Source of the DNA: Candidatus Nomurabacteria bacterium
GTDB lineage: Bacteria > Patescibacteriota > Minisyncoccia > Phycocordibacterales > UBA9973
Assembly (NCBI GenBank): GCA_016699085.1
Contig: CP064958.1
Location: 409,375-473,374, forward strand
DNA length: 64,000 bases
Direction: 5' to 3'
Shown here: in pieces, positions 20,334-39,298 of the stretch
How positions within the stretch are numbered: the stretch's first letter is position 1
How the letters are laid out: each line of letters opens with the position of its first letter
Position numbers and translations under genes: made by a program
The notes under the pieces: model-generated
Told to the model about the DNA's origin: nothing
Databases searched by the model: none
The model's input: the letters and a program-made list of their open reading frames with translations, nothing else

Positions 20334-20741
20334 CTAATTGTAGTGAGTTTTTTCAAGTAGTGAATCAATGGTCCTTTTCTCGGAGATGACTGGTGACAGA
20401 ATAAACAATTCACCTCTCGTTATGCTTTTAGGGAAGATATAAAGCGAACCAACCAGGAATGCATCGATATATATTGCACTAGTCTGTTCCTCTTCATATA
20501 TCGAATCACGCATGTCCCATGAAAACGATGGTGGTTTGAGCTCATGGAGTTTCCAATTGCTTCTCGTTGGTACCCATATTTCTGTAAACCAAATTTCAAT
20601 AGTTGTTCCTTTGACAAAGATTTCTTTGATTTGGCCGCGATATATGGAATCAATATCCATACATTCGAAAAATCTGTTACATATCGGATAGTCACACGCT
20701 GGTGCGCAGTAAAGAGCAATAAAAATTTCCCAATTATTCAT
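20334..20741 (-). CDS. hypothetical protein, Cys-rich N-terminus (CAPACDYPICNRFFEC)
   Basis: 135-aa ORF, no recognisable family. Confidence 0.35.
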   Translation of the reverse strand: MNNWEIFIALYCAPACDYPICNRFFECMDIDSIYRGQIKEIFVKGTTIEIWFTEIWVPTRSNWKLHELKPPSFSWDMRDSIYEEEQTSAIYIDAFLVGSLYIFPKSITRGELFILSPVISEKRTIDSLLEKTHYN

Positions 20742-20770
20742 AATGGCGATTTTCTTTATTGAAGCATATA

Positions 20771-20806
20771 TTTACCAAAAGAAAAACCCGACAATATTGT
20801 CGGGTT
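20771..20806 (-). terminator. terminator for 20815..21195: palindrome aacccgacaat/attgtcgggtt followed (minus strand) by TTTTTCTTTTGG
   Basis: 11-bp stem directly downstream of minus-strand stop. Confidence 0.6.
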
Positions 20807-20814
20807 GGAGTAAA

Positions 20815-21195
20815 TTATTTTGGTTGTTTGTAAGCAACTTTCAGGAGGAGTGCGGTACTTACAGTTTTATTTTCTGGGAAAATGTACCATTCTTCGCCCT
20901 TTGTTTTAATCGTAATTGTCCCGTCATCAGAATATAGGATATTGTCATCCTTAATATTACAGATAAGATCTGCATCATCACCGTCAGACCATATTTTCTC
21001 ATCCCATACTGCGACAATCTGGATATGGAAGAAAAATATGGTATCGCTATTATGTTTGGTCATATCACTGATACACCCTCGCTGTCGTTTTTTTTCAGTT
21101 GAATAAAATTCCACTAATCGCCCAACGAAATTAGTCCTATCCTCTGTATCTTCTATAAAACGCTCTTTATGTTCCATGAAAAATGTTTCTTGCAT
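20815..21195 (-). CDS. hypothetical protein
   Basis: 126-aa ORF, acidic. Confidence 0.35.
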   Translation of the reverse strand: MQETFFMEHKERFIEDTEDRTNFVGRLVEFYSTEKKRQRGCISDMTKHNSDTIFFFHIQIVAVWDEKIWSDGDDADLICNIKDDNILYSDDGTITIKTKGEEWYIFPENKTVSTALLLKVAYKQPK

Positions 21196-21277
21196 TTAAG
21201 CATATAAATTAGACTGCGTCAAAGAGATCTACTTTTTATTGAAAAAATAGAGTGGTACTATATAAAGAAAGCTCTTT

Positions 21278-21694
21278 ATGAAAAAGATACTCATGCTCAT
21301 TATTGGTCTTTTCTTTTTAAGCAAATATACACCCATCGCACATGCGCAGACGCAAGATTCATTGATTTTTTGCAATCCCAAGAAAATTGAATACGTTTTC
21401 AGATTTGCATTGTATGATAACCTTCTGGCGGATTCTGGGCTCGTTGTCAAATATAGCGGTCAGTGCAGTGATGAGTTTTTCGTTAAGCGAACTGATGCAT
21501 CATGGGAGAAGATAAATATCCCGAACCGTCCACGTGAAATATATGTGCGCATTCATAAAACGCATACAGACTTTAGCTGTTATCCGAAGAAGGAAGTTTG
21601 GCGATTAGATTATACAAACTTTACCTTTTCTGATATCACTAGAAAGCCTGGCGCGATCTTTGTGCATGATTGCGCCGATGAAGTACGATTTTAA
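21278..21694 (+). CDS. secreted hypothetical protein (signal peptide MKKILMLIIGLFFLSKYTPIAHA)
   Basis: N-terminal signal peptide with AHA-Q cleavage site, 4 Cys. Confidence 0.4.
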   Translation: MKKILMLIIGLFFLSKYTPIAHAQTQDSLIFCNPKKIEYVFRFALYDNLLADSGLVVKYSGQCSDEFFVKRTDASWEKINIPNRPREIYVRIHKTHTDFSCYPKKEVWRLDYTNFTFSDITRKPGAIFVHDCADEVRF

Positions 21695-21702
21695 TAAAAA
21701 AC

Positions 21703-21730
21703 AAAACCCCGCGAAATAATGCGGGGTTTT
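21703..21730 (+). terminator. terminator AAAACCCCGC-GAAATAAT-GCGGGGTTTT (T7)
   Basis: 10-bp stem; near-identical inverted copy at 23580-23610. Confidence 0.65.
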
Positions 21731-21810
21731 AATATGACCTATGCATTGTAATTTTTTAAAAATGTGGTATATTGTAGATAATACTTTTCTTTACGTAAAA
21801 AATATAAATA

Positions 21811-22779
21811 ATGATACAAGATCATAGATTAAACAACTATCTTCGTGCGTTAATTGAAAATTCACCCGCAATTGCAAAAATATATGCTCAAACTCCTGAG
21901 GTTCCAAAAGCAGATTCTTTAAATGAAGGGACGTTTGAAGTTTCGCCAGGGCTTGTGCATAAATTTAAACCAAGCGTTGTACTGTTGCTTAACGGGATTT
22001 GTGCTGCGCAATGTTCATTTTGTGAACGTTTACCCACCGGAGTCGGTGATCCAAATTATTACGGTGATTTGACTATGAATGCGCTCGATCTCGCTAAAGC
22101 TGTTTCTTACATACGAGCAGATGCAGATATTAAAGATGTTATTTTCTCTGGTGGTGATCCACTTAATTCTCTCTCTGAACTATCGGCATGTGTACAAGAG
22201 CTTTCGAAAATAGATCATATTAAAACAATCAGAATTCATACAAAATTTCCGCTGCAGAACCCGATTGGCATGAAAGGGAAGTATTGGTTACTCAGGAATG
22301 TCTCTCTTTGTATTAAGACTGCTAAGAAGATACCGTATCTTTCATTAAACATTAGTCACCCTGATGAGTTTACAAAAGAAGCTTGCAATGCCATCTTGGA
22401 ATTGAAAGATATAGGCTACACCTTAATATCTCAGTCAGTTTTTTTGAAAGGAGTAAATAATGATGTTGGTACTCTCGTGCGGATGTTTGATCTTATTGTG
22501 GAAAATGGGATATCTCCCTATTATCTTTATCATTGTCAATCAAAACCTCACACTCATGCGCTTGGTTTTGTAGAAGATCTGAATAAGGAAATTGCAATAG
22601 TTAGACAAGTTTTCGAACGTCTTCCTGGGATCTATAGACCCACGCATGTTATCGATATTGAGGGAAATCAGCATGCTTCAGGTCTGGCTCGTGGTAAAGT
22701 TACTGTCCCGCATCATTTTTCAGGAAAAGAATTTTTTGATTTTGATAGAAAATCTTTTTCCCTTTCGGATTACATATAA
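21811..22779 (+). CDS. KamA-family radical SAM aminomutase (lysine 2,3-aminomutase / EpmB-like)
   Basis: CAAQCSFC (CxxxCxxC), SGGDPL, SQSVFLKGVNND, SPYYLYHCQ align to KamA motifs CSMYCRHC/SGGDAL/NQSVLLRGVND/PYYIYQCD. Confidence 0.7.
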   Translation: MIQDHRLNNYLRALIENSPAIAKIYAQTPEVPKADSLNEGTFEVSPGLVHKFKPSVVLLLNGICAAQCSFCERLPTGVGDPNYYGDLTMNALDLAKAVSYIRADADIKDVIFSGGDPLNSLSELSACVQELSKIDHIKTIRIHTKFPLQNPIGMKGKYWLLRNVSLCIKTAKKIPYLSLNISHPDEFTKEACNAILELKDIGYTLISQSVFLKGVNNDVGTLVRMFDLIVENGISPYYLYHCQSKPHTHALGFVEDLNKEIAIVRQVFERLPGIYRPTHVIDIEGNQHASGLARGKVTVPHHFSGKEFFDFDRKSFSLSDYI

Positions 22780-22872
22780 ATAGTTGGTGGCAAATATTTA
22801 ATACATTTGTCACCCTTTATTGGTACATAATTTTCTGTGCATAGTGTATCGATAAAGGGTATAAATATTCAT

Positions 22873-23580
22873 ATGAAAACAATGTCTCAAAAACAGAAAA
22901 CTTTAGTGCTCTTTAGCGGGGGTAAAGATAGTGTATTTGCACTTTACAAAGCACTATTAGATGGATATGAACCTGTGTTACTTTCATTTGTAAACAAAAG
23001 TGATCAAGTACAATTTACTGACGGCCCGGAAATTGACCATATCTTTTGGCAAATGTACCTATCTCTATTTGGGATGTTTCAATCCATTAGTATACAAACT
23101 GATGGGTTGGATAATTCTTTAGCACAAAAAATACAATCTATATCACACGAGAATAATATTGAATCAATATACACCGGAGATCTTGGGCACCCAAATGGCA
23201 TTGATGAGCTCCTAATAAGGCAAACTCAATTGAAAGTTTATACACCAGGTCGTAGTTATGTAAAATCATATGGAAAGAAGGCATACATAGAATATTTGGT
23301 TTCTCTTGGTTTCGTTATGCCTATAATTAGTGTGCGATCAGATGTTGCTCAGGTAGTCTCTGTAGGGGAAATACTAACTGTTGAATATTGCAATCGATTA
23401 GAATTGTGTGGAGTTGACTGTACTGGAGAAGATGGAGAATTTCAAACTATTGTTACAAAATGTCCACTGTATAAATATGAAATGCAAATTAATGCATATT
23501 TACTTGAAAGTAATAAAGGTCGGGATGATAAAAATTTTGAATATAAGCGTATGGTGTCAATAAAAGCAGTTTTAAAATAA
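22873..23580 (+). CDS. PP-loop ATP pyrophosphatase of the MJ0570/Dph6 (ATP_bind_4, diphthine-ammonia-ligase-like) family
   Basis: LVLFSGGKDSVFALYKALLDGYEPV (SGGKDS PP-loop), VYTPGRSY, LGFVMPIISV, CTGEDGEFQTIVTKCPLYK match MJ0570-family blocks; start at MKTMSQ (track ORF 22837, GTG). Confidence 0.6.
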   Translation: MKTMSQKQKTLVLFSGGKDSVFALYKALLDGYEPVLLSFVNKSDQVQFTDGPEIDHIFWQMYLSLFGMFQSISIQTDGLDNSLAQKIQSISHENNIESIYTGDLGHPNGIDELLIRQTQLKVYTPGRSYVKSYGKKAYIEYLVSLGFVMPIISVRSDVAQVVSVGEILTVEYCNRLELCGVDCTGEDGEFQTIVTKCPLYKYEMQINAYLLESNKGRDDKNFEYKRMVSIKAVLK

Positions 23581-23610
23581 AAACCCGCATTATTTCGCGG
23601 GGTTTTATTT
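23580..23610. terminator. bidirectional terminator AAAACCCGC-ATTATTTC-GCGGGGTTTT (T8), reverse complement of T7
   Basis: serves plus-strand PP-loop gene and minus-strand tmRNA 3' end. Confidence 0.65.
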
Positions 23611-23613
23611 TTG

Positions 23614-24119: not shown

Positions 24120-24566
24120 TTAACGAGCTTTTACATTTCTTCGAATTTCTCGGTCGAGATCTCGTTTCTTGATTGTCTCACGCTTGTCGAATTTCTTTTT
24201 GCCACGAGCAAGCGCTATCTCTACCTTAATTTTCGAGCTTTTATTATACAATGATATAGGAATAAGTGTCAATCCTTTCGTGAGGAGCTGTTTTTCAAGA
24301 TTTAGGATTTCTTTTTTTGTCAAAAGCAGTCGTCTGGTGCGCAGTGGATCATAGTCATCGGCAGTATTACCAGCTTGATATGGTGGGATCGATATGCCGA
24401 CAACATAAGCTTCGCCTCCGCGAATAAGCGCACGGGCACCTTCGAGTGTTGCCTGCCCTAGTCGTATAGATTTGACCTCGGTTCCGATAAGTTCGATCCC
24501 GGTTTCATATTTCTCGAGTATGTCGTAGTCAAAATGTGCTTTTCGATTGGTTGCGTAGGCTGCCAT
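24120..24566 (-). CDS. smpB: SsrA-binding protein SmpB (start at internal Met of track ORF 24120..24656)
   Basis: KAHFDYDILEKYETGIELIGTEVKSIR typical SmpB. Confidence 0.85.
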   Translation of the reverse strand: MAAYATNRKAHFDYDILEKYETGIELIGTEVKSIRLGQATLEGARALIRGGEAYVVGISIPPYQAGNTADDYDPLRTRRLLLTKKEILNLEKQLLTKGLTLIPISLYNKSSKIKVEIALARGKKKFDKRETIKKRDLDREIRRNVKAR

Positions 24567-24643
24567 AGAGAAAATTGTAGCATATTGACCTTTATTTTCG
24601 TTTTTGACATTTTCCTGTATACTATGCTCTATCAAAAACATAT

Positions 24644-26569
24644 ATGAAATTGCCATTACAAAATCTAAGTTCGAAAGGTAAAAAGCCGAATATGCCCAAG
24701 GCCGGTATCGGTAGCCACTTGTTGACTGCGTTCCTTATATTTATGGCTATTACAGCTGCCTATACGCTTATTGTCGGCAATACAAAAACGACCAAAGAAG
24801 TCCCACTTTCAGAAGTTGCAACATCAATCAATAATGGCGAGGTAACAAAAATCATTGTTGACGGTGACAAGCTTACCATTACGCTTGCTGACGGTACAGA
24901 AGAGAAATCAAAAAAAGAATTGGAATCATCGCTCACTGAAACGCTTGCTAATTATGGTGTACCAGCTGAAAAGATCGCTGCAACCGAAATCAATATCAAA
25001 AGCCAATCAGGTGTAAGCTTTTGGCTGGCGACGATTTTACCCATACTGCTGCCTATTTTGTTTGTCGTCGTATTTTTCCTCTTTATTTCTCGCCAAGTCA
25101 AAGGTGCAGGCATGCAGGCATTTTCGTTTGGTCAATCCAAAGCAAAAATTACTGATCCAAATGATAAGAATAATCGTGTAACCTTCAAAGATGTTGCTGG
25201 TAGTAAAGAAGCTAAAGAGGAACTCAAAGAGATTGTTGATTTCCTCAAGAATCCAAAAAAGTTTCTGGATATTGGAGCTCGAATTCCTAAAGGGGTATTA
25301 CTAACAGGCGTGCCAGGTACAGGCAAAACACTTTTGGCTCGAGCAGTTGCAGGAGAAGCTGCAGTGCCATTTTTCCATCTGTCAGGTAGTGAGTTTGTTG
25401 AAATGTTTGTTGGCGTTGGTGCGTCACGCGTGCGAGATCTTTTTATGATGGCCAAGCGTGCAGCGCCCGCGATCGTCTTTATCGACGAGATAGATGCTGT
25501 CGGCCGTGTCCGCGGTACTGGTGTTGGTGGTGGCAACGACGAACGTGAACAAACCCTTAACCAAATATTGGTTGAGATGGATGGTTTTGAGCCTAATGAA
25601 AAAGTGATCGTTATGGCTGCGACGAACCGCTCAGATGTGCTAGACCCCGCACTACTACGACCAGGCCGATTTGATCGACGAGTGATTCTAGATTTGCCTG
25701 ATCGCTCTGACCGAGAAGAGATTCTCATTATTCATGCTCGCAAGAAGCCATTTGCCGAAGACGTTAATCTCAAAGTGATTGCAGAGCGTACACCAGGGTT
25801 TTCAGGAGCTGATCTTTATTCGCTTATGAATGAGGCAGCAATTCTCGCTGCTCGAGAAGACAGGAAAAGTGTTGCGCAGTTTGATCTCATTCGTTCTATA
25901 GAAAAAGTTATGCTTGGTCCAGAGCGCAAAAGCCACCTCTTTTCGAAACATGAAAAGAAAATCACGGCATACCATGAAGCTGGTCATGCAGTGATCGCAT
26001 CAGTCTTGCCATATGCTGACCCTGTGCACAAGGTTTCCATCGTTGCACGTGGGAGAGCAGGTGGCTATACGTTAAAACTTCCACTTGAAGATCGTAAACT
26101 ACAATCCAAGAAAGAATTCCTCGATGATATTGCGATGTCGCTCGGCGGGTACGTTGCTGAGGAAATGATTTTCGGTGATATTACGACTGGTCCATCAAAT
26201 GATCTGCAGGTTTCAACATCACTTGCGCGAGCTATGGTTACCCGCTGGGGCATGAGTGAGCTTATCGGTCCAATCGCACTAGAATCTGATGGAGGCCGTC
26301 CATTGTTTGGCAGAGGAGTTGAGAGTCATGAATATTCTGAAGAAATGTCTGGCAAGATTGATAGTGAGGTCAAGAGAATTATGGATACGGCATTTGCGAA
26401 AGCTCGTGATGTACTGACTACTCACCGCAAGGCACTCGATGCTGTTGCAGAGAAACTTATTGAAGTCGAGACTCTCGAACAAGGAGCGTACGAAGATATC
26501 ATCAAAATGCATGGCATCATGCCGAAAAAGAAAGAAGGACAAAAATCAGATCTTGTTGTAGCAGAATAA
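24644..26569 (+). CDS. ftsH: ATP-dependent zinc metalloprotease FtsH
   Basis: Walker [18 protein letters not shown] zinc motif, N-terminal TM. Confidence 0.9.
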
Positions 26570-28442: not shown

Positions 28443-28478
28443 GCTTCAGTTAATAATTGACTGAAGCTTTTTCTATTG
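28442..28478 (+). terminator. hairpin agcttcagt-taataattg-actgaagct + tttttctatt
   Basis: 9-bp stem after stop at 28442. Confidence 0.55.
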
Positions 28479-28552
28479 TCCGTCCTCTTGGATTCGAACC
28501 AAGGACCCTCGAGGTATAAGCTCGATGCTCTAACCAACTGAGCTAAGGACGG
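28479..28552 (-). tRNA. tRNA-Ile with anticodon UAU (74 nt, no encoded CCA)
   Basis: cloverleaf: acceptor CCGTCCT/AGGACGG, D-arm GCTC-AGTTGGTTA-GAGC, anticodon arm TCGAG-CTTATAC-CTCGA, T-arm CTTGG-TTCGAAT-CCAAG. Confidence 0.8.
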
Positions 28553-28976: not shown

Positions 28977-31900
28977 ATGCCTCACGAAACTCCAAATAAT
29001 ATTGCTAGTGATCATGCAGTAACAGAGCGCACCAAGAAAGATATTGAAGAGAAACTCGCACTCGAGCAAGAAGAGAAAAATAAAAAAATAGAAAAGAAAA
29101 TTTACAAAGCGGCAGTAGTGAATGCCAACAAACTTCTCGAAACTCAAGCTCGGGATATTGGCGATGCCAATATGACAGAGTCGAGCGAAGAACGTTCCGG
29201 TAATTGGTTGAAAAAACACTGGAATCGAATTTGGAAGCACAACCTGGCCCAGGAATATTATCGTCAGAAAAAGATCGCGGAGGCGCGTAATGAAATTATA
29301 GAGACAGGCAATTTGTATGCTGGCGAAAAAGGTTTTGGTCCTGATAACGTAGACACAAGCAAGGCAAGCGAAGAAGCCATGCAGGCTATTGTTAATCGTT
29401 TTACGAGTGAATATGAGAAGGACACACTTAGAGAAGATGAGCTTAAATCTAAGAAAGAAAAAACTGAGAAAATTCCAGCTGAAGTTAACGAGCAAATTAA
29501 GAATCTCATTAGAGCATTTGCGGGAGGCTCTATGGATAAAGCGGCATTTACAGAAGAAAGGAATCGTATACTTGCTCCGTATGATCCAGAAATTGCTAAA
29601 AAAGGAAGTCTATATGCTGATAACCTTTTTACTATAGCCGAAGAAGTTAGAAGCGCAGTAGATCACGGGACAAAACTTACTGAGATTGATTTTGATGTAG
29701 AAATTACGCTCGGTACAGCCCGTGATAGTTTGAGCACAAAAGCGAATTTTAATGCTTTTGATAAAAGTGTTGAGTATTTACAAAATTCCAAAGTTGGGAA
29801 ATATATTGTGAATGCACCTGGTGCAATGTTGGCAACTGCAGCTGTATATGGTGCAGTTCTTGTTGCAGGAGAGCAAGCCGGGAGATGGGGATCGAAATTT
29901 GCTAACATATTTACGTTTGGTGCTGCGGGTCTAGCATTCTCAGGTGGCGTTGCAGCGCTGAAAGAATCAGCTCGTGTTACTCGCGAACGCTCACAGCATA
30001 TGCGTGAACGTGCCAAAGGTATGGAATTTACCGAAGAAGACATGAAGCGTCGTCGGAATATGGAGAAAAATACGTATGAAATGAAAGGTGCGACAGAAAT
30101 TATTGCAGGACTCGAAGCTGATCTAAAAAAAGTTAATGAAGGCAAACTTCCTGCTGGTGCTATAGAAGATATTCTGGGGCGTGTTGCTGACCTAGAGGCA
30201 AGAACCAAACTAAATAACCAAAAAAATATTGATCTCATTTCATATGATAAATTCAATAGTATAGAAACAGATCGAACCGACTTGCTTGTTAAAAATGCAG
30301 AACTAAAAGTTGCATTACGTAACGCAGTCGCTTCTGGTGCAATAACATTGCCAGGACCAGAGAATTTTGATAGGAATTTGGAAATACTAACCAATGTGTA
30401 TCGCGATCTTTTGGTTGAGGGAGAGAAAGGCATTGAAGCAAAAGATAGAATTTTTAGAAAAATGAAAGCAAAGCGAGTTGCCGGAGCATTTGCCAAAACT
30501 GTGATTGTTGGCAGTGCGGTTGGACTTGCTGTCTATGGTGTTGCGCACCTTGCTGGTCCGATTGTACACAAACTACAAGAATGGATAGGAGGCAAACAAG
30601 ACCTCTTTGTTCCTAAAGGCCAAGAGCAAGGAATAATCGTGGGCAACGGCAAAATGTTGCTTCCAGAGGGAGTGTCAATTCACGCAAGTCCAGATGGTAC
30701 GACATATGAGATCTTGAACGGCGATCAAACTGTTGCAAGTGGTGTCCACCTTAAGTTCAATCCAGATGGAACGCTTGCTCCTGGTTCACAAGCAGAGCTT
30801 GCTCAGCATGGCATTGTTCCTTCGATGACTCAAGCTTCACATGAAGTCAGTCAGCATGTGTCTGGTACAGCACATGATTATATGCAAAACCATCCAGATG
30901 CACGTCAGATTCATCGTGATGGGTGGATGGATAATGATACACGAACCTCAAACTTAAATGAGCTTAAAACGCACTGGGGTTCTGGTATTGGTGCTCCAAG
31001 TATGGATGCTCAAGGCAATATAACAATGAATATTGCACATATGACCCAAGGAGGATCTTTCCATGAAGGTATGCATGTTGATGTACCTGGGCAAGCTTCT
31101 AGTGGCAACATGAAAATGCTGTTCTCACTTTCCCTTGATTCCCAACATCGAGTTTTTGAAATACCAGTTGATGCAAAAGGGAATATAGATATTCCTCCGG
31201 ATCATCCAATAAATAAACTCATGTTTAAAAATGTAAATGGGGAGACTATTTTCACAGGTAAACTTGCAGAAGTTGCCCAGTCAGTTGGGTTTGATGCAGC
31301 CGGCGAAGAGCATTTCCAAATTATTTCAACAATTGTTGGTCCCGGCCAAGCTGTAGTTGATCATACGATCGTAACGACAGTTCCTGATCATATTGTACGG
31401 TTAAATATTCCAACAGGCGGCGATGATTATCATATGCCATTTGTCCCAGTGCCGATCGTTGGACGTCGACCTCTCGAGCGAGGTCAGTATAAAAAAGATG
31501 CAACAATCCAAGAACGAAACAAACCAAAGAGCTCTGTCATTGATGCAATCTATAAACCTGGACAAGGTTTTCACGCTGAACCAACAAAAATAGAAAAAAA
31601 GAAAGGTAATGATTATGCGCTTAACCCAAATGCAGACTATGTCTATGGATTTATGGGCACTAATGCTGCTGATCTCGGAGTCCGGGTCGCAACATACACA
31701 CAAAAGCACGCACATCCAGAAGTGTTAGTTTTTGAAGCTGATCCAAAAAAGCGTGAAGAATTTATGGCACAGATCGAATATATGAAACCTCGTCATCCAA
31801 ATGTGACATTTACGTATGTTGAATTACCACAAACTAAAGCAGAGCTTGTTGGACAGAAATTCACGACGTATATGGAGGACCGATTTAGAAGCATCGTCGA

Positions 31901-32741
31901 TTCATCTGATGTTGATCCAGATATTGCCCATATACTGCAGACAGATAATGTCTCTCGACAAATTGAAGGTTTTAATGAAGAGATAAAAGCTGAAGTAAAA
32001 GTAAGTGACAAAAAATTAGAAGCAAGCCAAGCTGTATCAGAAGATATTCAGTCAGCAATTAAGACACTCGAAGCTGATCTTCGTCAGTATGAAGTCGTGA
32101 ATGGCTATGTCATAAAAGATAGCGAACCAGTAAGTGCCTACGAATATGAAAATAAGAAAAATGAGCTGAAAAAATTAAAACAAGAAGCAGGCTTATTGCC
32201 GAAAGTAGAAAAAAAGATAAGTCCAGAGAATCTTTTTGATACACCATTAGAGAAAAAGCCAGATGCAGTGTCTACAGAAAATCCCCGAGTTGCTATCACT
32301 GAGGAAGCCTTACCTGCTGAGTCCGTAGATGCTGTCAAAGAGGCAGTTGTATCTCCAGAAACACAAACAGAGAAAATTACTTTTGCAAATGATACTGACC
32401 GCGTCTTGGGTATTATGACAAGTACAGGCAGCAAGCTTCAATCCGAAGTTGAAAAAATAATGAGTAATAAGAAGTATAAGAAACCAGCTATAGTTTTGTT
32501 TGATTCAGTGACGACCGCTTCCAGTCGTGGACAAATAAAACTAGCTATCAATAGTATTCGTGCAAAATATCCAGATATACAGTTGGAAGTAGTACCAGTT
32601 GAATCAACCGAAGAAACAAAAGCACAGAAAGCTGGTGCCTATATGAAGCAATACCTCAAAGAAGTTATTGCTGATTCAAATATCACAAAAAAGAAGATTC
32701 GTCCTACCGTAAGTGGTAATGCACTGGCCTTTGCGCAGTAA
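28977..32741 (+). CDS. very large (1254 aa) hypothetical membrane protein: charged coiled-coil N-terminus, two hydrophobic hairpins, long Ser/Thr/His/Gly/Asp-rich central region, C-terminal alpha/beta region
   Basis: predicted TM segments ~aa 270-330 and ~500-530; no catalytic motifs recognised. Confidence 0.5.
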   Translation: MPHETPNNIASDHAVTERTKKDIEEKLALEQEEKNKKIEKKIYKAAVVNANKLLETQARDIGDANMTESSEERSGNWLKKHWNRIWKHNLAQEYYRQKKIAEARNEIIETGNLYAGEKGFGPDNVDTSKASEEAMQAIVNRFTSEYEKDTLREDELKSKKEKTEKIPAEVNEQIKNLIRAFAGGSMDKAAFTEERNRILAPYDPEIAKKGSLYADNLFTIAEEVRSAVDHGTKLTEIDFDVEITLGTARDSLSTKANFNAFDKSVEYLQNSKVGKYIVNAPGAMLATAAVYGAVLVAGEQAGRWGSKFANIFTFGAAGLAFSGGVAALKESARVTRERSQHMRERAKGMEFTEEDMKRRRNMEKNTYEMKGATEIIAGLEADLKKVNEGKLPAGAIEDILGRVADLEARTKLNNQKNIDLISYDKFNSIETDRTDLLVKNAELKVALRNAVASGAITLPGPENFDRNLEILTNVYRDLLVEGEKGIEAKDRIFRKMKAKRVAGAFAKTVIVGSAVGLAVYGVAHLAGPIVHKLQEWIGGKQDLFVPKGQEQGIIVGNGKMLLPEGVSIHASPDGTTYEILNGDQTVASGVHLKFNPDGTLAPGSQAELAQHGIVPSMTQASHEVSQHVSGTAHDYMQNHPDARQIHRDGWMDNDTRTSNLNELKTHWGSGIGAPSMDAQGNITMNIAHMTQGGSFHEGMHVDVPGQASSGNMKMLFSLSLDSQHRVFEIPVDAKGNIDIPPDHPINKLMFKNVNGETIFTGKLAEVAQSVGFDAAGEEHFQIISTIVGPGQAVVDHTIVTTVPDHIVRLNIPTGGDDYHMPFVPVPIVGRRPLERGQYKKDATIQERNKPKSSVIDAIYKPGQGFHAEPTKIEKKKGNDYALNPNADYVYGFMGTNAADLGVRVATYTQKHAHPEVLVFEADPKKREEFMAQIEYMKPRHPNVTFTYVELPQTKAELVGQKFTTYMEDRFRSIVDSSDVDPDIAHILQTDNVSRQIEGFNEEIKAEVKVSDKKLEASQAVSEDIQSAIKTLEADLRQYEVVNGYVIKDSEPVSAYEYENKKNELKKLKQEAGLLPKVEKKISPENLFDTPLEKKPDAVSTENPRVAITEEALPAESVDAVKEAVVSPETQTEKITFANDTDRVLGIMTSTGSKLQSEVEKIMSNKKYKKPAIVLFDSVTTASSRGQIKLAINSIRAKYPDIQLEVVPVESTEETKAQKAGAYMKQYLKEVIADSNITKKKIRPTVSGNALAFAQ

Positions 32742-38897: not shown

Positions 38898-38940
38898 TGA
38901 AGCAGTTCACATGCTCGCCAGCGCTTTCGCGAAGCTCAAG

Positions 38941-39027
38941 CGGAGGCGGTGAGATTCGAACTCACGGACCCGGTAAAGGGTCGACAGTTTAGTAAACTGT
39001 TGATTTAAACCACTCATCCACGCCTCC
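38941..39027 (-). tRNA. class II (long variable arm) Ser-type tRNA with anticodon loop UUACUAA (apparent anticodon ACU)
   Basis: acceptor GGAGGCG/CGCCTCC, discriminator G, D-loop GAGTGGTT, T-arm GTGAG-TTCGAAT-CTCAC, variable arm GACCC..GGGTC; anticodon stem ACAGT/ACTGT. Confidence 0.7.
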
Positions 39028-39130: not shown

Positions 39131-39213
39131 TTCCGCTGTTCGAATCTCACACGCAACGTGCGCAGGCACGTTGCTCGTCTCCGCAAAGTTTTTCTCTTCG
39201 CTAAAAGACTTTG
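39131..39213 (+). repeat. plus-oriented tRNA-Ser-3'-like fragment E3 (TTCGAATCTCACAC + 9-bp hairpin GCAACGTGC/GCACGTTGC + CTCGTCTCCGCAAAGT)
   Basis: forms a 14-bp inverted repeat with the real 3' end/flank of tRNA-Ser(GCU). Confidence 0.5.
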
Positions 39214-39298
39214 CGGAGACGGCGAGATTCGAACTCGCGAGGGCTTTCACCCTGCCTCCTTAGCAAGGAGGTACGTTAGACCACTCTGACACGTCTCC
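39214..39298 (-). tRNA. tRNA-Ser (anticodon GCU), 85 nt
   Basis: acceptor GGAGACG/CGTCTCC, anticodon arm CCTCC-TTGCTAA-GGAGG, long variable arm, T-arm GCGAG-TTCGAAT-CTCGC, discriminator G. Confidence 0.85.

Follow-up and report, generated by a model that had tools for sequence, protein, structure and literature searches.

What do a radical S-adenosylmethionine (SAM) aminomutase and a PP-loop ATPase do together, and how did they come to stand as a pair, bounded by inverted copies of one hairpin, beside the transfer-messenger RNA (tmRNA) gene ssrA of a reduced bacterial genome? The question is raised by a 64-kb stretch of DNA from a Candidatus Nomurabacteria (Patescibacteria) metagenome-assembled genome (MAG) with an 808-kb contig, called the window here, which was compared with related loci that carry L-numbers. 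In the reading that we favour, to which we give a probability of roughly 0.55, the two genes form an accessory operon, whose aminomutase would make a beta-amino acid and whose PP-loop enzyme would adenylate a carboxylate and form an amide with ATP. The operon is found mainly in Patescibacteria and is flanked here by the terminator of a resident gene on one side and by the 3' end of ssrA on the other. Both proteins come from known superfamilies, and their chemistry is likely conventional; what is new is the pairing of KamA with DUF71, together with the Gln188 subfamily of DUF71 to which the PP-loop protein belongs. The two genes are:

21811-22779, + strand: homologue of KamA-family radical-SAM/pyridoxal phosphate (PLP) amino-acid 2,3-aminomutases, 322 aa, QQR49904.1
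22873-23580, + strand: DUF71/PF01902 PP-loop (N-type) ATP pyrophosphatase of the 'Gln188' subfamily, 235 aa, QQR49905.1

Both open reading frames (ORFs) occur exactly where a first-pass annotation, made from the sequence alone, had placed them, and with the motifs that it had quoted. Their deposited annotations read 'lysine 2,3-aminomutase' and 'hypothetical protein', respectively. The first gene encodes the motifs CAAQCSFC, SGGDPL, SQSVFLKGVNND, and PYYLYHCQ, and its earlier assignment to the KamA type held, as the motif set is complete and the best NCBIfam matches are all to KamA-family models: TIGR03822 (AblA_like_2; 158 bits), EpmB (140), TIGR00238 (131), and the arginine, lysine, and glutamate models (116, 114, and 97). 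With TIGR00238, the protein scored 131.1 bits against a cut-off of 199.2 (E = 4e-38), making it a clear homologue yet an outlier, and with EpmB (TIGR03821) it scored 140.2 bits against an equivalog cut-off of 369.3. A Pfam profile search gave only a sub-threshold match to Radical_SAM and no match to LAM_C (PF12544). Since the scores lie below the cut-offs of all KamA models, the protein is placed in an outlying clade.

Alignment to the lysine 2,3-aminomutase (LAM) of Clostridium subterminale (PDB 2A5H) covers residues 34-286 (E = 1e-26). Across 19 aligned family members, CxxxCxxC (C64/C68/C71), SGGDP, R73 (LAM R134), and K296 (LAM K337) are invariant, so that the radical-SAM/PLP machinery is intact. 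We take R134 of LAM to be the arginine for the alpha-carboxylate, K337 to be the PLP-binding lysine, and D293 and D330 to hold the epsilon-ammonium group of the lysine substrate. The signature of the window enzyme at R134/D293/D330/K337 is R73/Q243/D282/K296, so that the equivalent of D330 is kept and that of D293 is a glutamine. Among the 120 best database matches, this position is Gln, His, Glu, Thr, or Ser in all but two of the 34 closest sequences, and Asp in 86/86 of the remoter KamA/EpmB sequences. The enzyme thus shares with KamA/AblA LAM and with EpmB/YjeK the CxxxCxxC, SGGDP, and PYY motifs, the alpha-carboxylate arginine, and the PLP lysine, and it is short like EpmB. Unlike LAM, it has no LAM_C domain, an Asp in place of the Zn-site Cys268 (LAM numbering), and ends before the C-terminal Cys cluster. 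It also falls far below every named equivalog cut-off of the KamA/EpmB enzymes, and its partner is neither EpmA nor an acetyltransferase.

By its alignment, the aminomutase is a KamA-type enzyme of an outlying short clade, with a predicted substrate pocket unlike that of the lysine 2,3-aminomutases. The proposal that it makes a beta-amino acid agrees with its KamA-type catalytic residues, while lysine as the substrate has become less likely: because one of the two aspartates that hold lysine is replaced by Gln, the substrate need not be lysine, though it is probably basic or polar. The altered side-chain pocket of this clade may bring a new beta-amino-acid specificity. As a lead only, engineered alanine 2,3-aminomutases reportedly carry His, Gln, Thr, or Asn at a lysine-binding aspartate.

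Short KamA homologues also occur without a PP-loop gene, in Actinokineospora, planctomycetes, and Paceibacterota. The closest homologue of the aminomutase outside the candidate phyla radiation (CPR) is found in Actinokineospora auranticolor (L005; PTIX01000016.1, 8001-16966), with 40% identity and Gln at the LAM D293 position. Its gene cluster also encodes a 490-aa protein with faint ATP-grasp similarity, a DegT aminotransferase, a family 4 (GT4) glycosyltransferase, a GMC oxidoreductase, a B12-binding radical-SAM protein, and a SPASM radical-SAM protein. The cluster may encode a pathway to a natural product or a glycan in which the same beta-amino acid is used. A shared ATP-grasp partner was considered for the 486-490-aa genes that lie 3' of the short KamA genes in Actinokineospora and Paceibacterota, and was rejected: these genes are mutually unrelated, and only the actinobacterial one gave faint ATP-grasp matches.

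The second gene starts at the ATG at 22873 rather than at an upstream GTG (22837), as indicated by the alignment of homologues and by the deposited 235-aa protein. It encodes the motifs SGGKDS, which is invariant in the homologue alignment, TGDLGHPNGI, and GEDGEFQT. Its membership of the MJ0570/Dph6 (DUF71) family, as first assigned, was borne out by the profile PF01902 (Diphthami_syn_2), which it matched with 59.1 bits against a gathering cut-off of 23.2; the Dph6_archaeal model (TIGR03679) gave 55.8 bits and failed the equivalog cut-off of 197.3. An AlphaFold (AF2) model built from nine clade members, with a predicted local distance difference test (pLDDT) score of 90.4, matched the Pyrococcus DUF71 structures 3RK1/2D13 (PF0828/PH1257) in Foldseek, with template modelling (TM) scores of 0.70-0.73. 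The likeness to Dph6 (PF0828/PH1257; yeast YLR143w) thus comprises the fold (TM 0.73), SGGKDS, and a C-terminal G-E-x-G-E-F/Y-x-T, and by analogy ATP-dependent carboxylate activation would be the expected chemistry.

A Dph6-like function fared less well than membership of the family. Dph6 enzymes carry a strictly conserved EGGE/DxE188 (PF0828 numbering), whose E188 adjoins the modelled diphthine carboxylate, and a modelled interface with elongation factor 2 (EF-2) made up of S44, Y45, Y103, Q104, and other residues (de Crecy-Lagard et al. 2012, PMC3541065). The same authors noted that bacteria contain no EF-2 or diphthine, and described a bacterial DUF71-B12 subgroup, with a predicted role in cobamide salvage, that carries ENGEF/YH188. 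In the window protein, Gln191 aligns to E188; Y103/Q104 lie in a deletion, where a clade-specific TGDLxHPxGI takes their place; S44/Y45 align to V/Q; and H48 is an Asp in the KamA-partnered branch.

When 1.84 billion representative proteins were searched exhaustively with a profile, just 22 clusters were returned at E <= 1e-30, and a gap in score bounds the clade, with at least 128 bits inside it and at most 108 bits for the next-best matches. Gln occupies position 188 in 17/17 of the full-length clade representatives that were read and in every sequence of a later alignment, whereas matches just outside the clade carry His (B12 type) or Glu (Dph6 type). Gln188 throughout, together with the gap in score, points to a third, rare subfamily of DUF71 rather than to a Dph6 orthologue, and it is on these sequence features that we delimit the new subfamily. 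It resembles the DUF71-B12 subgroup in that both are bacterial, presumably came from archaea, and carry a substitution at residue 188 that implies a changed function. The two differ in signature (E-D/G-G-E-F/Y-Q188 here, ENGEF/YH188 there) and in profile score, the His-type matches reaching no more than 108 bits, and no btuCDF, cbiB, or other B12 gene lies near the window pair.

In a metagenome scan with the PP-loop alignment, the matches listed were all Dph6-like, with 30% identity or less, and probably from archaea. No relatives were found on viral contigs, and against the PADLOC defence models the only match was a trivial one to QatC, through the PP-loop (E = 0.003).

Outside the window, the aminomutase and PP-loop genes stand side by side in at least four more lineages (those that are named belong to Patescibacteria); either gene may come first, and the flanks are unrelated (loci L001, L002, L004, L010-12, and L016). 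The pair in L001 is 95% identical to that in the window, and that in L002 has the same gene order at 57%/44% identity. In L004, L010-12, and L016, the gene order is opposite and identity to the window proteins is 38%/35%; L016 is a Saccharibacteria MAG and was, with L017, among the matches listed in a genome scan. Each lineage has its own flanking genes, without a conserved third gene, and within the PP-loop clade the KamA-partnered loci make up two deep sub-branches. For the window compared with L001, the ratio of nonsynonymous to synonymous substitution rates (dN/dS) is 0.098 for the aminomutase gene and 0.124 for the PP-loop gene, against 0.233 for truB; both genes are under strong purifying selection. 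The pairing is therefore real and conserved, and it is non-random, in line with the first interpretation. Full-text literature searches found no description of it or of the Gln188 subfamily, and the only relevant paper found on bacterial DUF71 was PMC3541065.

In L013, L180, and L181, a sister branch within the Gln188 clade, there is a 4-nt overlap between the DUF71 gene and a gene for a protein of 322-331 aa, and the latter gene is followed by one for a short-chain dehydrogenase/reductase (SDR) or epimerase. The genes for these partners, which resemble alanyl-tRNA synthetase (AlaRS), are:

L013, 6702-7670: AlaRS-like partner gene
L180, 5001-5996: AlaRS-like partner gene
L181, 1113-2108: AlaRS-like partner gene

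The partner family comprises 39 unnamed homologues without a Pfam match. Modelled with AlphaFold (pLDDT 90.3), the family matches the AlaRS catalytic domain (5KNN and 4XEO; TM 0.74, probability 1.0), so that an AlaRS catalytic-domain fold is predicted with high confidence. Since both kinds of partner of Gln188 DUF71 proteins bind or activate free amino acids, the subfamily appears to be tied to amino-acid derivatisation. Bacterial DUF71 proteins have been without a proven function since their family was split in 2012 into Dph6 and a predicted B12-salvage group; a third subfamily with two amino-acid-handling partners makes the chemistry of the family directly testable with two small soluble proteins.

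That the pair is an accessory unit follows from its surroundings in the window and in close relatives, for which these further features are needed:

21697-21731: left terminator hairpin, AAAACCCCGC-GAAATAAT-GCGGGGTTTT, which ends the upstream 138-aa gene and of which a copy is also present at the empty site of relatives
21732-23607, + strand: presence/absence segment (cassette) of 1,876 bp, with promoter-like site, two genes, and second hairpin
21746-21773, + strand: promoter-like site, TTGTAA, 16 nt, and TG-extended TATATT, 38 nt 5' of the aminomutase gene (consensus match only)
22786-22866, + strand: structured intercistronic RNA with two hairpins, recognised by its fold z-score
23578-23612: right hairpin, reverse complement of the left one; bidirectional terminator for the PP-loop gene (+) and ssrA (-)
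23611/23613-23999, - strand: tmRNA gene (ssrA), context outside the cassette
24120-24656, - strand: smpB, beyond ssrA

The location beside smpB-ssrA, as originally noted, is correct. Three contigs (L097, GCA_964563615.1; L098; L099) keep the synteny ftsH-smpB-ssrA/138-aa/126-aa/135-aa/truB, with 82-91% nucleotide identity to the window in the flanking genes and 97.7% in ssrA, and contain no cassette. At this empty site, the 138-aa gene and ssrA converge on a single hairpin, TAATAAAAAAATAA-CCCCGCGAAATAATACGGGG-TTTTATTTTTGTGGAACTGGGG (L097/L098). The occupied state, seen in the window, in L096 (99.7-100% identical), and in L001, equals the empty state plus 1,876 bp, and the ends of this segment share the 11-nt GCGGGGTTTTA. 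As the pair is missing from relatives with the same synteny, in which there is a single hairpin, the unit is a presence/absence cassette; the promoter-like segment is likewise missing from the empty site, which indicates that the cassette brings its own upstream region. KamA homologues of 58-95% identity were not found in a database of 5.8 billion clusters, so that the empty-site relatives are probably without the cassette altogether.

The G+C content of the cassette is 34.9%, against 40.4 +/- 2.0% for equal-sized windows, of which it falls in the lowest 1.6%. Occupied and empty genomes fall into two separate clades, so that gain and loss are both formally possible; we favour gain, given the low G+C content and the varied contexts elsewhere. 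The cassette was probably acquired horizontally and has an accessory function. Patescibacterial genomes are very small, and this one offers a clear example of gain or loss between close relatives, in which a two-gene metabolic unit at the ssrA terminator can be compared with its empty site.

In the first step of the operon's proposed reaction sequence, the KamA-type enzyme, with [4Fe-4S], SAM, and PLP, would shift the amino group of a free L-amino acid from the alpha carbon to C3, as its family and catalytic residues suggest, giving a beta-amino acid. In the second, the DUF71 enzyme would use ATP to adenylate a carboxylate, in the simplest case the one on the beta-amino acid, and ammonia or another amine would attack the adenylate to give a beta-amino-acid amide or an N-(beta-aminoacyl) conjugate. 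Several points weigh against this scheme. All KamA-family hidden Markov model (HMM) scores of the aminomutase are below the curated cut-offs. Glu188, which is predicted to be catalytic in Dph6 (PMC3541065), is replaced by Gln, which could mean a type of reaction other than amidation, as has been proposed for the His188 B12 subgroup. Two members of the PP-loop clade (L013 and L017) have no adjacent KamA gene. Finally, the chemistry of both clades is read from family and motifs, and the choice of the beta-amino acid as the owner of the adenylated carboxylate is pure inference.

Among the alternatives, the pair could decorate the cell envelope, with a peptidoglycan stem peptide or surface glycopolymer receiving the beta-amino acid or being amidated, much as in AsnB-type peptidoglycan amidation. 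Some of the related loci do lie in such surroundings: of the sister-branch loci, L013 has a GT4 glycosyltransferase, a D-Ala-D-Ala carboxypeptidase, and an epimerase/SDR as neighbours, and L180 has Ddl and an SDR, while the Actinokineospora homologue stands in a sugar-modifying cluster with a DegT aminotransferase, GT4, and two more radical-SAM genes. Strain-variable surface chemistry would also be typical of accessory genes. However, no envelope gene adjoins the pair in the window, L002, L004, L010, or L016, two genes appear sufficient as a unit, and inspection of both sequences by eye revealed no signal peptide or membrane anchor. We regard envelope decoration as unlikely.

A second alternative is that a macromolecule of the translation apparatus is modified, for instance by a beta-aminoacylation like that of elongation factor P (EF-P), with the DUF71 enzyme replacing or following an EpmA-type ligase. 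Both paradigms do modify elongation factors, EpmB acting on EF-P and Dph6 on EF-2, as is established (PMC3541065). The beta-lysylation of EF-P by EpmA/EpmB(/EpmC) likewise combines a KamA-type enzyme with an ATP-dependent ligating enzyme, and in the sister branch the Gln188 DUF71 gene is translationally coupled to that for a free-standing homologue of the class II aminoacyl-tRNA synthetase (aaRS) catalytic domain. This is EpmA's kind of protein, although it resembles AlaRS rather than lysyl-tRNA synthetase (LysRS). By analogy, the combination of a KamA-like with a class II aaRS-like partner echoes EpmB/EpmA and keeps a macromolecule-modifying role alive. Translation genes are frequent neighbours as well (alaS, infA, hisS/def/fmt, a prmC-like gene, and ssrA/smpB), though such genes dominate small genomes.

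Against such a target, which had been suggested at the outset and which these results weaken, stands the distribution of the cassette: it is strain-variable, being absent from close relatives with 82-98% nucleotide identity in the flanks, its G+C content is atypically low, and its clade is extremely rare. Using Escherichia coli EF-P and EpmA sequences as queries, tblastn found no bacterial match to efp or epmA in the window or in any cassette locus. The Dph6 residues at the EF-2 interface (Y103, Q104, S44, and Y45) and E188 are not conserved. The system therefore differs from EpmA/EpmB in the family of its ligase, in the lack of efp linkage at these loci, and in being an accessory rather than a lineage-wide unit. 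On balance, a target in the translation apparatus seems improbable. A broader version would hold that the Gln188 DUF71 proteins are ATP-dependent bacterial ligases whose target is a macromolecule (such as EF-P, a ribosomal protein, or tRNA), to which they would join a group derived from an amino acid, either a beta-amino acid made by the KamA-type partner or an amino acid activated by the AlaRS-like one; from the present comparisons, this generalisation would be quite improbable.

A further alternative concerns the DNA rather than the enzymes. The inverted hairpins could be the ends of a mobile or invertible element (insertion sequence (IS)-like, integron-cassette-like, or a DNA-inversion switch) that carries the two genes as cargo. 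The two hairpins form a 35-nt inverted repeat that is 94% complementary, and the right one reads AAAAACCCGC-ATTATTTC-GCGGGGTTTT. The first-pass annotation had described them as reverse complements; they are indeed inverted copies, 8-nt loops included, but one stem position is mismatched in the second. Their pattern has 2 matches in the 64-kb window, against 0.00 expected from 100 shuffles. The boundaries of the indel coincide exactly with the hairpin, of which the second copy is reverse-complementary including the loop. The right hairpin directly borders the tmRNA gene at its 3' end (23611-23613), which leaves the end of the cassette 3-5 nt from that point, and the 3' end of ssrA is a classical hot spot of integration.

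These features would suit a mobile element, but the 1,876-bp segment contains only two coding-strand ORFs of at least 60 aa, and no ORF for a recombinase, transposase, or integrase. A duplicated ssrA 3' end, as an attachment (att) site, was not found, and the only repeat found was the terminator hairpin, which occurs just twice in the 64 kb. The cassette homologues in L002 lack such hairpins, and the orientation is identical in 3/3 of the occupied genomes. Integron attC sites and IS200/IS605-type ends were also considered for the cassette ends, and were rejected for want of a recombinase and of a matching consensus. Of the boundary as first described, the self-contained module and its duplicated edge stand, given the empty site in relatives, whereas its invertibility finds no support, because all three occupied genomes show the same orientation and no recombinase is present. 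A mobile or invertible element is thus very unlikely. Rather, both hairpins score as intrinsic-terminator-like (L001 carries a slightly diverged copy of the left one), and they are ordinary intrinsic terminators, one resident and one at the end of the cassette, that insulate it from the 138-aa gene and from ssrA. Chance juxtaposition or decaying remnants, for which the scores of both proteins below curated equivalog cut-offs could speak, is effectively refuted by the recurrence of the adjacency in independent contexts and in both gene orders, by dN/dS values of ~0.1, and by catalytic motifs that are all intact.

Within the accessory operon, the RNA between the two genes may add a layer of regulation. 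In its second hairpin, the 3' arm includes AAAGGG, a Shine-Dalgarno-like sequence for the PP-loop gene, which is thereby sequestered in the stem. The z-score of the fold is -3.3 in the window, -4.1 in L001 (3570-3650), and -4.0 in L002 (2846-2907), where the same architecture is formed by a different stem sequence. No Rfam family matched this RNA, nor was a known riboswitch or leader found in or around the cassette. From its predicted fold, the two-hairpin RNA may be a translational control element.

Upstream of the cassette, three small hypothetical genes (135, 126, and 138 aa; window 20334-21694) with a G+C content of 36-39% separate it from truB. They are kept in occupied and empty-site relatives alike, and their products have no Pfam or NCBIfam match; the 138-aa protein has a hydrophobic N-terminus resembling a signal peptide. 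Further downstream, a 1,254-aa ORF (window 28977-32741, + strand) is kept in the near-identical contig L096, where the precomputed hits assign its counterpart no Pfam family. A tRNA-Ile with anticodon UAU (window 28478-28552, - strand) suggests AUA decoding without lysidine; TilS is a PP-loop enzyme that uses lysine. ARAGORN also called a tRNA-Ser with the unusual anticodon ACU (window 38940-39027, - strand) beside a normal tRNA-Ser(GCU) (39213-39298, - strand), which may reflect a mis-set anticodon or a genuine oddity.

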